NCBI GenBank assembly: GCA_040954595.2 | Contig: CM082587.2 | Location: 1,703,000-1,766,999 of the forward strand | DNA: 64,000 nt | Reading direction: 5' to 3' | Source: Balanoglossus misakiensis | Lineage: Eukaryota; Animalia; Hemichordata | In this document: piece by piece, positions 30,900 to 64,000 of the stretch | Numbering within the stretch: the stretch's first letter is position 1 | Layout of the letters: every line of letters starts with the position of its first letter | Notes under the pieces: generated by a model | Told to the model about the DNA's origin: nothing | Database searches by the model: none | What the model saw: the letters and a program-made list of their open reading frames with translations, nothing else | Program-made: the position numbers and the translations under genes

Positions 30900-33800
30900 C
30901 TAGAGGAGCTCCGTGTGCTCGAATCTCCGCACAAGCATTCGCAGCGTGCCCTCAGACCGCTTCACCAGTTCAACAGCTTCTGCGTACGTCAAGGACTCCC
31001 GTCGTCGTCCATCCACTTCGAGTACCACGTCTCCAATCTAGCGATAAAGAGGAAATATCAAGGAAATTACATGGGAAAGTTTTTCGTCTATCAGAATCCT
31101 TTATTCTCCATTGAATGAAGACAAGAACAGACAGCAGAAAGTCCAGACTATTGCTCTCGACAATACAGTTGTGGTGTGGCCAGTGAGACCATCAAAATAA
31201 GGGAGGATACAAAAGGATGCATCAGACTCAGGGAGACGGGCAGAGACAAACAGACATGCGGACGTAATATAGTTGCTGATATGATTTCCTACCTTCAGTT
31301 TTCCGTTTTGACTAGCTGGCGTGTTCGGTACAACGTCGTCCACCCATAACGGCATTCCCGCGATGTTCTGCTTGACGCCTCCGAGGGAGAACCCGAAACC
31401 ATTCGGGCCACGATTGAGTTCCGCCACGTGCAGGCCTGTACCCAAGTGAGTTGTTTCAAGGGCTTCTATCGGCAGCTGCTGTGTATAAAATCATAGGGTA
31501 AGTACAACCATGTTTATATGCTGTTGACGAGAAAAACTGCGCAATTTTAGCTGTGTGCATCTCTTGTAAATGAGCAAACTACCCATGTATATGACCAAAA
31601 GTACTATTCATTCGACAACAGCGCATCAAATCGCTCACACACTCTCACCCCCCCCCCCCCGGCTTAATCATTTTATCCTTACCTGTGGGACCTGCTTATC
31701 AACGGACACGCCATTTTCTCCTTCACTCTGTTTTGAAACCGGTGACCAAGTATCTCCGTCTTGTAAATGTACTTCGTCGATCTCAAGACCCTCGTTGGTA
31801 TTCCCCAACGAGTGCAGGAAACTCGCGTTTTGTTTCGGTATTCTCTTCTTTCGGGGCGAGTGGACCCTTTCACCGACCATCATCTTGTCATCCTCCGCCT
31901 GTGAATAACTGGCGCCCGCAACATGTCCGTTTGCACCATACCCGTTCCCCGTAAGGGGCGATGATGGAGGAAGGGTTATTCTTCTGTACCTGTAATTATA
32001 CATGGCAACGGAAATCAGATGTCGGGGAAGGAATACGTGATTTTTTTTCACCTTGGATGAAAAAATGAAAACATTGAAGGCATTGACAAAGAACTTTCAA
32101 GCTACTTCAGCTGTGAAGATTGGTTAAAGTGTATTCTTACATTGAATTTGCTCCGAAGAGGAAGTTGCTGTCTGTTGCAGCAGGTACCAGGGTGCTGTGA
32201 CCATTCTGAAGCAAGAATGAAAAAGACAATTACGTTAATTTAACACGGTTGTGTATACCACATTCCCAAGCGTCAACAAGGGTCTGCAACATGCCTGAAC
32301 TTCATGGCTCTCACCAGAGAAACACAAATCAAACGTCAATTACCTGATATCCGTTGAGAGCCGGATATCCGGAATCGAACAAAATGGTGGGTCTGGACAG
32401 TCGTTCCTCATGGTTGTCTTTGGCCATTTTTCGAAGATTGGACGCCTCCGCATTGCCAGTCTTGTCCACCATTTTATTCAGCAAACTGTATTTGTTTAGC
32501 AGCAAGTTGTATGGCTCGTCAAATTCTACCAACTTCCCTTCGTTGAAAAGCTAAATTTACAATTATAAATAAAAACGGGGGAAAGGTTGAAGCAAAGACA
32601 GAGTGAACGCTAATTGACAATTTCGAAGAATTCAAAAAACTACCTCCGCCAGAAATACATACCATGATTCTATCAGCGTCCATCACTGTGTGTAATCGAT
32701 GGGCAACTGTTAACACTGTGCAGTCTCTGAATTTCTTACGAATCGTTTCCTGAATCAGTTCATCCGTTCTGCGAGGGCGATAAACGAAGCGAACGTTAAT
32801 GTCGTGAAAGTATTTTTGACTATTTCAAGTGAAACACACGAACCAATCTGAATCACAGTGAATGATACATCTAGTTTAATCAATGCGGAGCTGGAATGTC
32901 ACAGAAACATTTTGTGTATATGACGTCAACCAATCCATCCATACATATAGGATTATTCTACATGAAATCTTACCTTGGATCGACATTGGCTGTAGCCTCA
33001 TCCAGTATCAAGATTTTATTGCTTCTCAGAATGGCTCTCGCTAGACAAACCAACTGTCTCTGGCCAACGCTGAGGTTTGATCCAGATTCTCCAACTGACG
33101 AGTCCAAACCATGTGGCATGTCGGATATAGCTGAATGCAGTTGAACCTGGTGGGAGTCAATGAACGATTGGTCAGGTTAATCTCAGAACGTGGCATGAAT
33201 CGATTTTTATCACAAATATGGTGGGTTCTGGATTTTTGCAATACAGCAGCTCAGTTCTGTGTGCATTGACAGAATAGTATTGTGGCATCTACTGACCTCA
33301 TTCAGAACTGTCCAGAGTTCATTGTCGTCAAATTGATTGAAGGGATCTAGATTGCTGCGGACGCTGGCAGTGAACAGAACGGGATCCTGAAATAAAAAGC
33401 AGAAAATGTAACTGGTGTTATCACTAACACATCCTTTTAAATAACCATAACACATTAGAGGTGTCATTGGTCTGTGGACATGCCAATAACAACCAAATGG
33501 CCAATACCAAACGTTTTTGATCGTACCATCTGTAAAGATTAAGAAATCAATATTTTATGTAGAGCTAATGAACATACCTGTGGAATGATAGAAATATTCT
33601 TTCGAAGGTCGTGGAGTCCCAGAGTTTTCACATCAATGTTGTCAATTCGTAATTCGCCGTCGGGTTCAGCCATTCGGAACAGGCATGTTATTAGTGAACT
33701 CTTTCCAGCCCCAGTCCTGCCTACAATGCCAATCTGTGTGTGGGAAACAGACGATGGCGTTAATTTGTGATTTTCTGTTCTTAAATACTGTGATACAATC

Positions 33801-62733: not shown

Positions 62734-64000
62734 ATGGCAACCAAACGACTCGGTGAGGTTTTCGGCAAACAGGCTCTCAGCAGCCACTTACACTGCGACT
62801 ATGTCGCTGACGTGCGCTGCGTCTCCGTCGATGGAAATACAGACTGGGCTGAGTTGGAGAAGGAAAACCCCTGGCTGGGAAGCGAAGTGAGTAGCCTTGT
62901 TTTCTAACAATTCATTCAGCTGTGTATTTGTGGAAATTTTGACATTTTTCTTTTGCTCTTGTATATCTTCAGGTTGGTTTTACAGATAAATTCACAGTCA
63001 GACAAATAAGTTAATACATACATACAATGCACATGCACACATTCAGTAGTATGATAGACTGATCCGGGTCAGGCCTGGTTCCGGATGTTAAAACCCAAAC
63101 CAACAAAATCAGTGCCAGGATATAAAGGTCACATAGTGTCACGAAAGTAGCCTATTGGAATTACTGCTCATTTATACAAGGAATCTTGATTGACATACAG
63201 AGTGGAAATTTATTTTAATAACTTCGACAGAAGCATTTCCCGTGTCATTTTTTTTAGAATCTGGTTGTGAAACCGGATCAACTCATCAAGAGACGAAGCA
63301 AACATGGACTGGTTCATCTCAACAAAGACTTGAAATCCGTCAAAGAATGGATAGCCGACTACCAAAGCAAGGAAATCGAGGTCAGTGACAGTATGCAGTT
63401 TTACTTGTACTTTTTTAAATTACTGGAGTAGCTTTTCGTTTATGTAGAATTACATTGTGTAAATTTTGTTTTATTTTTCGGATATATTTGTCGGACACTT
63501 ATACTTATTATCCTTTCTGGAATGTTTAATCAATGTGGTTTAACTCGTATGAAAGTAAAATGCCTAATTAAACTAATGTTCTTGTGCAGGTGGACGGGGT
63601 CAAGGGTCGCGTACAAAAGTTCATAGTCGAACCGTATGTTCCGCACGACCAGAAAGATGAGTACTACGCCTGCGTGTACTCCACCAGAGAAAATGACGTC
63701 ATCATGTTCCACCACGAAGGAGGCGTGGATGTTGGAAACATTGACGAGAAGGTGAGTCAAGTGCGGTGTCTCTGAGAAGTCGACAGTTTGTGTGATTAAT
63801 ATACATGATATTAGTTTTCTAACATACTGTGCAGGAATTTTACTAAGTGACCCAGTCAGGCAAGAGCAAGCGAAAATGAATGCTCACAAGTGAGCGAATA
63901 CACCCCGAAGAGAAGTCCAATGAATATATGGACTGACATGGCCCCAGCTTATTGGCTGACCCGATTTTGTTTCAGGCGAATAAATTAGCTGTCAGCATAG
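62734..64000 (+). CDS. ACLY: ATP-citrate lyase, N-terminal part (continues beyond the window)
   Basis: Exons 62734-62886, 63258-63380, 63590-63751, 63976->64000. MATKRLGE..DWAELEKENPWL..NLVVKPDQLIKRRSKHGLV..EPYVPH..FHHEGGVDVG matches the ACLY ATP-grasp N-terminus. Confidence 0.92.

Follow-up and report, generated by a model that had tools for sequence, protein, structure and literature searches.

Our analysis of a window of 64,000 nucleotides from the acorn worm Balanoglossus misakiensis (assembly GCA_040954595.2, contig CM082587.2, positions 1,703,000 to 1,766,999 of the forward strand) suggests that three neighbouring genes, encoding an iterative type I polyketide synthase (PKS), a flavin monooxygenase (FMO) resembling sea-urchin Fmo3 and a divergent paralogue of ATP-citrate lyase (ACLY), likely act together in one pathway for a specialised metabolite. 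In it, the paralogue would serve as an ATP-dependent ligase of a non-citrate acid. We assign this reading a probability of roughly 0.55. The window, in which all positions below are counted, comes from an enteropneust hemichordate whose PKS finds its best matches in Ptychodera flava, the species to which this acorn worm appears closest. The compactness of this neighbourhood of PKS, FMO and metabolic enzyme is supported by gene models and by a scan of the gaps; further evidence comes from the sites kept and lost in the ACLY paralogue and from its apparent linkage to the PKS in P. flava. Papers are cited by PMC number.

Organisation and splicing of the locus

A sequence-only reading of this DNA had described four consecutive genes in two divergent pairs, with the PKS and the FMO tail-to-tail, and gene models built from coordinates reproduce this order and these strands: an ABCC4-like transporter (-), the PKS (+), the FMO (-) and the ACLY-like gene (+). 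The four are non-homologous, and the locus thus shows the contiguous, non-homologous enzyme genes expected of a biosynthetic gene cluster. The same reading saw no other gene between them, and none was detected when all 93 stop-to-stop frames of at least 55 aa in the four gaps were scanned against Pfam: no frame (0/93) scored above the cut-off and two gave weak matches below it, in a scan that small-exon or non-coding genes may have escaped. The start codons of the FMO and the ACLY-like gene are 1,424 bp apart, the stops of the PKS and the FMO are separated by 2,524 bp, and the ABCC and PKS starts lie ~7.7 kb apart.

For 46000-64000, every one of the 30 bins is covered by two sets of DNA contigs. 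From that sample there is also a third run, X3, which carries the label 'DNA?' and was treated as RNA-derived solely because its contigs skip introns; in the rows shown, these contigs join one of the three PKS introns, three of the four coding introns of the FMO together with the intron in its 5' untranslated region, and all three ACLY-like introns. The PKS, the FMO and the ACLY-like gene are therefore spliced in one sample. An X3 joint at 61321-61611 and the start of an X3 contig at 62640 delimit a head-to-head interval of ~1 kb between the FMO and ACLY-like transcripts (61611..62640), which is a candidate shared promoter.

Sequence features of the three enzymes

The ACLY-like gene opens with an ATP-grasp region (62734..64000, +) and continues past the window; its exons lie at 62734-62886, 63258-63380, 63590-63751 and from 63976 onward, so that its first 154 codons fall within the window, and its introns are those spliced in X3. 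A search with the third exon returned a single protein, the 'ATP-citrate synthase-like' protein of P. flava (XP_070582143/4, 804 and 797 aa). Over 146 aa the window gene is 80% identical to XP_070582143, as against 46-50% to all seven canonical ACLYs compared (48% to that of P. flava itself), and in the tree the two paralogues group with support of 1.0 on a long branch. Judged by these comparisons, the fourth gene, which the sequence-only reading had labelled ACLY, is a divergent ACLY paralogue and not the housekeeping enzyme. P. flava has a canonical ACLY of 1,096 aa on another chromosome (a 45,584,913-bp contig), and at least in that species the worry that this might be the sole housekeeping copy falls away; Glandiceps also has a canonical copy. 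The canonical proteins of P. flava and Glandiceps share 88.5% identity, and the P. flava paralogue shares 42% with the ACLY of its own genome. Because no second paralogue of the same kind appeared among the best 120 of 7,995 scored candidates (the next reached 42%), the gene looks lineage-restricted, and it looks to have been relocated beside the PKS. We considered whether it might be a pseudogene and rejected this, as the frame is open, the transcript is spliced and the protein is 80% conserved, like the PKS.

Sites were compared with 113 canonical copies over 1,050 aa (of 119 matches), using site lists from PMC11365397. The P. flava paralogue matches 19 of 24 residues of the ADP site, 6 of 16 of the citrate site, 6 of 18 of the CoA contacts in ASH and none of the nine in CSH, and the window gene matches 17 of the 20 ADP-site residues that it covers. 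In the P. flava protein H760, E718 and S308 are kept, E599 is replaced by G and R379 by Q, and N346 and T348 are lost; N346, T348 and R379 are invariant in 113 of 113 canonical ACLYs. Of the near-invariant columns, the ATP-grasp domain retains 60 of 86 and the citrate domain 49 of 123. A search of the ESM Atlas returned ACLY/SCS-type clusters only, and an alignment-based model of the P. flava paralogue keeps the ASH fold (pLDDT 70.7; TM 0.89 to truncated human ACLY, 3pff). The likeness to ACLY and SCS-type ligases thus includes ATP-grasp, citrate-binding-type, CoA-binding-type and CoA-ligase domains in one chain, together with the ADP site, H760, E718 and the fold. In contrast to ACLY, the P. 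flava orthologue stops at residue 804, at the ASH/CSH linker, both isoforms being without the CSH domain (PF00285), and it therefore has no lyase or tetramer domain; its citrate pocket is rewritten, and a 6-residue insertion lies by the CoA loop.

The ATP-grasp domain with its ADP residues is seen in both proteins, and the phospho-His760 with Glu718 in the orthologue, these positions lying beyond the window for the B. misakiensis gene. The loss of the citrate-binding residues is likewise read from the orthologue and is probably shared by the window gene; E599 and most of the ASH contacts for CoA are lost in the P. flava protein, to which this observation applies, and so is the CSH, or citryl-CoA lyase, domain with D1026, the 3' end of the window gene lying beyond the window. 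D1026 in CSH is essential, and isolated ASH of ACLY forms a citryl-phosphate adduct yet cannot bind CoA (PMC10115795). Because the citrate contacts, E599 and the domain with D1026 are lost, and because isolated ASH cannot bind CoA, supply of acetyl-CoA from citrate by this gene seems unlikely, and the earlier proposal that it provides the acetyl-CoA precursor finds no support in the orthologue.

The PKS (48151..56331, +) is a protein of 2,455 aa in which Pfam and motifs place the domains KS-AT-DH-(pseudo)MT-ER-KR-ACP with no TE. Its exons lie at 48151-48204, 48613-48709, 48992-55854 and 55978-56331, and the last intron is the one spliced in X3. The best matches are in P. flava (79, 75, 76 and 82%), followed by Glandiceps talaboti (74 and 68%), sea stars (51%) and sea-urchin Pks1 (44%); identity to P. 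flava XP_070582137/8 is 79-82%. The motifs of a reducing iterative animal PKS are all present, namely KS Cys-His-His, AT Ser, DH His/Asp, the ER and KR NADPH motifs, KR Tyr and ACP Ser, the KR Tyr being defined as in PMC11414698. The DH His, the ER and KR NADPH motifs and the KR Tyr are kept in the window PKS and in five full-length acorn-worm relatives, and all of them are lost in four of four sea-urchin Pks1 proteins. The aromatic products of SpPks1 and CrPKS have been linked to a KR without this Tyr (PMC11414698), and the window KR has both the Tyr and the NADPH motif. In the KS trees the acorn-worm PKSs (100/100) and the KR-dead Pks1 proteins (100/100) form separate clades, with deeper branches unresolved, and the window KS does not group with Pks1. 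The likelihood trees held 40 of the 73 PKS rows, and another tree with all 73 and four bacterial rows gave the same picture; the trees were drawn without named FAS or Pks2.

The window PKS thus resembles SpPks1 and CrPKS in its KS-AT-DH-cMT-ER-KR-ACP order without a TE, in a GMMD KS motif, a feature of short-chain echinoderm PKSs (PMC11414698), in a similar pseudo-MT motif and in an Fmo3-like partner; it differs from them in its intact DH, ER and KR motifs, its separate acorn-worm clade and an identity of 44%. Of the Pks1-type naphthalene scaffold suggested earlier, the domain order stands, whereas the dead DH, ER and KR motifs of SpPks1 and its separate clade speak against the scaffold itself. 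Because the PKS keeps these motifs and falls in a separate acorn-worm clade, we expect its product to be reduced and not a naphthalene, probably a short reduced or polyene chain.

Several further observations concern this gene. Almost the whole PKS lies on the single 6.9-kb exon at 48992-55854 (+), although the nearby ABCC gene is broken up by frequent short introns. A possible non-coding first exon with a strong splice donor occurs at 46520-46607 (+), with no read support seen, and a high-copy repeat (many loose ends, depth in thousands) surrounds the first coding exon and intron at ~47800-48430. Four P. flava PKS copies lie on one contig and two Glandiceps copies on one contig, all full-length ones with the reducing motifs, and the named matches included no acorn-worm PKS with a dead KR. 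Contamination or recent gene transfer was considered for the PKS and rejected in view of its introns and its acorn-worm orthologues at 68-82%.

The FMO (58855..61310, -) is a class B enzyme of 538 aa with a hydrophobic C-terminal tail, encoded by five exons from 61310 to 58855, with an exon of the 5' untranslated region ending at 61611. It carries the features of its class, namely FAD GxGxxG, FxGxxxHxxxF/Y, FATGY and PF00743. Its NADPH motif is a variant in which the second Gly is Ser, as in 18 of 75 relatives. Position 2 of this motif (60289-60260, -) is Asp, outside the eight commonest residues among the 75 relatives, and the cofactor preference may differ. The search was made against 50%-cluster representatives, of which 150 were returned and 9 were looked up, these 9 including no P. 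flava protein; the best match was a Saccoglossus FMO (54%), followed by Diadema, Apostichopus and Strongylocentrotus, and the tree groups the window FMO with Saccoglossus and echinoderm FMOs in an ambulacrarian clade. Peptides from Sp-fmo3 primers (PMC7455242) agree with it in 12 of 20 residues, more than with any other of the 76 rows compared (the runner-up has 10), the peptides having been placed by their likeness to the window FMO. A weak resemblance to pigment-cell Fmo3 is thus indicated. The connection to pigment-cell FMOs drawn in the sequence-only reading is supported to that extent; in this comparison, which included no labelled Fmo3 protein, the window FMO may belong to pigment-cell FMO clade 1, the group of Sp-Fmo3, Fmo5-1 and Fmo2-2. 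The second-best match, Diadema setosum XP_072176904, and Diadema Pks1 are both on a 37,745,034-bp contig, which may be an old Pks-Fmo3 linkage or a 1-in-20 chance.

Linkage in relatives, the proposed pathway and its competitors

In P. flava, the ACLY paralogue XP_070582143/4 and the PKS copies XP_070582137-9 share a 40,999,305-bp contig and are 5-7 accessions apart. These PKS copies are the ones nearest the window's (KS-AT SH-aLRT 99.8; KS alone 87/77), and two further copies on the contig have distant accessions. Conservation of the linkage, the absence of which was among the points named as refuting the sequence-only reading, thus appears to hold for the link between the PKS and the ACLY-like gene, the two genes that the P. 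flava placement covers. As P. flava has 23 chromosomes and 35,856 genes (PMC11175523), the same chromosome would be shared by chance once in 23 times, and such accession proximity would occur about once in 900 if the numbers were random; neighbouring accessions suggest neighbouring genes and do not prove them. For 35,856 genes, the chance that a unique gene lies within two genes of any of three PKS loci is ~3e-4, and the chance that an FMO (1 to 50 copies assumed) neighbours a given PKS is 6e-5 to 3e-3, both values being post hoc and ignoring the number of windows scanned. The stronger argument from linkage is that what appears to be a lineage-restricted duplicate left the chromosome of its parent and sits beside a PKS and an Fmo3-like gene (~3e-4, post hoc). 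In amphioxus (Branchiostoma), an ACSF2-like AMP-forming acyl-CoA ligase stands directly before a related PKS, the two being fused in the old gene model BRAFLDRAFT_125650. This pair is similar in joining a related PKS to an adjacent gene for an acid-activating ligase, and a parallel recruitment of such an enzyme is possible; it differs in that the AMP-forming ligase is of another family, the PKS belongs to a separate clade and the arrangement is seen through the old fused model only.

In the pathway that we propose, ATP would phosphorylate His760 of the ACLY paralogue, the phosphate would pass from His760 to a non-citrate carboxylate to give an acyl-phosphate, and the acyl group would then be handed to an acceptor bearing a thiol or an amine. 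The most likely role of this transfer would be to prime the PKS with a special starter unit, and a crinoid PKS is known to accept a butyryl starter (PMC11414698); less likely, it would conjugate or release the chain of the TE-less PKS. The PKS would elongate the starter by malonyl units and, using NADPH, carry out reduction and dehydration to yield a short chain that is reduced or a polyene. This product would be oxidised by the membrane-anchored FMO and may be exported by the ABCC4-like pump. A more far-reaching version, which we regard as somewhat unlikely when taken whole, sees a contiguous four-gene cluster in which ACLY was duplicated, moved beside the PKS, left without its lyase and rewired as a starter-loading or as an off-loading or conjugating ligase, followed by Fmo3-like oxidation and by export through a self-scaffolding ABCC4-PDZ pump; this would amount to a new enzyme class derived from central metabolism and to the route to an undescribed acorn-worm metabolite. 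The repurposing of primary genes in an animal cluster has a precedent (PMC12833800).

The alternative that we take most seriously, though we consider it unlikely, is a neighbourhood with no shared pathway, produced by gene density and short-range synteny, in which the ACLY duplicate evolves fast in an unrelated role or as a pseudoenzyme. The window is gene-dense and holds unrelated genes, ambulacrarians have enlarged FMO families (sea urchin has at least 12, PMC7455242), the pigment-pathway genes of echinoderms are reported as unclustered (PMC11414698), and neighbourhoods of this kind were selected post hoc by a scan. This alternative fits less well with three chemically compatible enzymes in a row, with a duplicate that is off its parent's chromosome and head-to-head within ~1 kb of the FMO, with a rough chance of 1e-4 to 1e-3 per link, and with a protein whose catalytic ATP and His residues were kept while its substrate sites changed. 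It is less probable still that only the PKS and the FMO are partners, as an old Pks-Fmo3 module of pigment or immune cells, the ACLY paralogue and the ABCC gene being passengers or merely co-regulated. Fmo3 and Pks1 do act together in urchin pigment cells (PMC7455242), the contigs of the two Diadema genes match in size (~1 in 20 by chance), and in Glandiceps, where the PKS clade is present, no copy of the paralogue was found; however, the gene that faces the FMO across the short head-to-head interval is the paralogue and not the PKS, and P. flava appears to retain the link between paralogue and PKS. Finally, a true ACLY supplying acetyl-CoA for a Pks1-type aromatic (naphthoquinone) pigment is now highly improbable and largely refuted. 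The SpPks1-like domain order, the GMMD motif, the Fmo3-like FMO and an ACLY-like 3' end beyond the window would agree with it, whereas the orthologue is without the citrate contacts, E599 and the CSH domain with its essential D1026, and the PKS keeps the KR Tyr lost in SpPks1 and CrPKS and stands outside the KR-dead clade, both clades having 100/100 support.

A number of points weigh against a shared pathway of PKS, FMO and ACLY paralogue. Literature searches found no known acorn-worm polyketide, splicing of three genes in one sample is not co-expression within one cell type, and the flanking B-box, TIR, ZIP and TPR genes are not biosynthetic. As for the enzymes, intact reducing motifs are no proof of active domains, the comparison with Fmo3 covers 20 residues placed as described above, and the C-terminal two-thirds of the ACLY-like protein lie beyond the window, its lost sites and lyase domain being read from the P. 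flava RefSeq model. Isolated ACLY ASH cannot bind CoA alone (PMC10115795) and the paralogue has lost further CoA contacts, which would fit a pseudoenzyme or another acceptor. As for linkage, that in P. flava was read from a shared contig size and accession numbers and not from coordinates, XP_070582140-142 lie between the accessions of the PKS copies and the paralogue, no FMO or ABCC orthologue was placed in that species, and selection need not be the reason why two ptychoderids whose proteins are ~80% identical have neighbours in common. As for the amphioxus pair, the accessions of the ligase and the PKS joined in the old model are far apart in B. floridae RefSeq.

The transporter, known animal clusters and flanking genes

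The ABCC4/MRP4-like transporter (30900..40521, -) was modelled as 30 GT-AG exons from 39995 to 30900, with frequent introns of 88-282 bp, giving a single open frame of 1,582 aa that does not include the uncertain exon 1 (candidates at ~40521/40413-40343). Its assignment was judged on one 63-aa exon, whose best relatives in the PDB are ABCC4/MRP4, on a match to ABC_tran and on the intact frame. Like ABCC4/MRP4, the model contains two nucleotide-binding domains and lacks an additional membrane domain at its N-terminus; unlike them, the pump is predicted to end in a PDZ domain of its own. The frame at 32205-30900 (-) adds four GT-AG exons leading into this domain, which spans two exons in frame with ABCC (30900..31478, -; PF00595 halves with E 0.0028 and 7e-5), and the ABCC-PDZ fusion is thus predicted from DNA alone. 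An in-frame stop four codons inside the intron at 32343 may also allow a PDZ-less form. The C-terminus of vertebrate ABCC4 is a PDZ-binding motif. The gene is tied to the pathway by position alone, and its membership is doubtful; for the pigment cells of urchins, the transporter reported is ABCG11 and not a pump of the ABCC type (PMC7455242). A Gcm site has two exact matches in the 64 kb, one of them at 43753 in the gap between ABCC and PKS; such matches may arise by chance and were given no weight.

If our proposal holds, the locus would encode a microbe-style pathway of a kind rare in animals. The sequence-only reading called such clusters very rare in animals, and the statement needs tempering, since clusters from molluscs and soft corals have been validated and a bundle of repurposed primary genes for an alkaloid is published from a sponge (PMC12833800). 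The sponge oro, mollusc bursatellin-oxazinin and soft-coral terpene loci resemble the present one in having intron-bearing animal genes at one locus with primary genes repurposed, and oro includes a CoA ligase and an FMO (PMC12833800). In contrast to them, the core here is a type I PKS, the genes are contiguous, the activating enzyme is ACLY-derived and the locus is known from its genes alone. The partner genes described in PMC11414698 as 'not clustered in echinoderms' are adjacent in the window, and mollusc AFPK genes are also not clustered (PMC12833800). Tailoring and release in animal PKS pathways are largely unknown because the genes involved, according to reports on echinoderms and molluscs, are not clustered, and a compact cluster would name partners of such a pathway; off-loading in TE-less animal enzymes is itself described as largely open (PMC10764717). 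If our proposal is true, an ACLY that has lost its lyase and changed its substrate site would show the ASH module acting by itself in nature, a case relevant to the debate over where ACLY binds CoA and cleaves citryl-CoA (PMC10115795). Literature searches, with most subscription papers outside their scope, turned up no description of the locus, nor of any animal ACLY paralogue that is without the lyase domain; the supplements of PMC11618098 and PMC11175523 held no PKS or ACLY terms, and those of PMC10396339 no ABCC4 or ACLY terms.

Other genes lie at lower positions in the window, beyond the 3' end of the transporter. A TPR-repeat gene at ~3.6-8 kb is followed by a His-rich ZIP zinc transporter at 10.6-14.0 kb (together 3600-14050, +), the latter presumably SLC39A7-like. 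At 23638-25703 (+), a TIR-domain frame precedes a double B-box/coiled-coil frame, and the two may form a single innate-immunity gene. Just past the 3' end of ABCC, at 26310-28523 (+), RVT_1 marks a remnant of a LINE-type reverse transcriptase.

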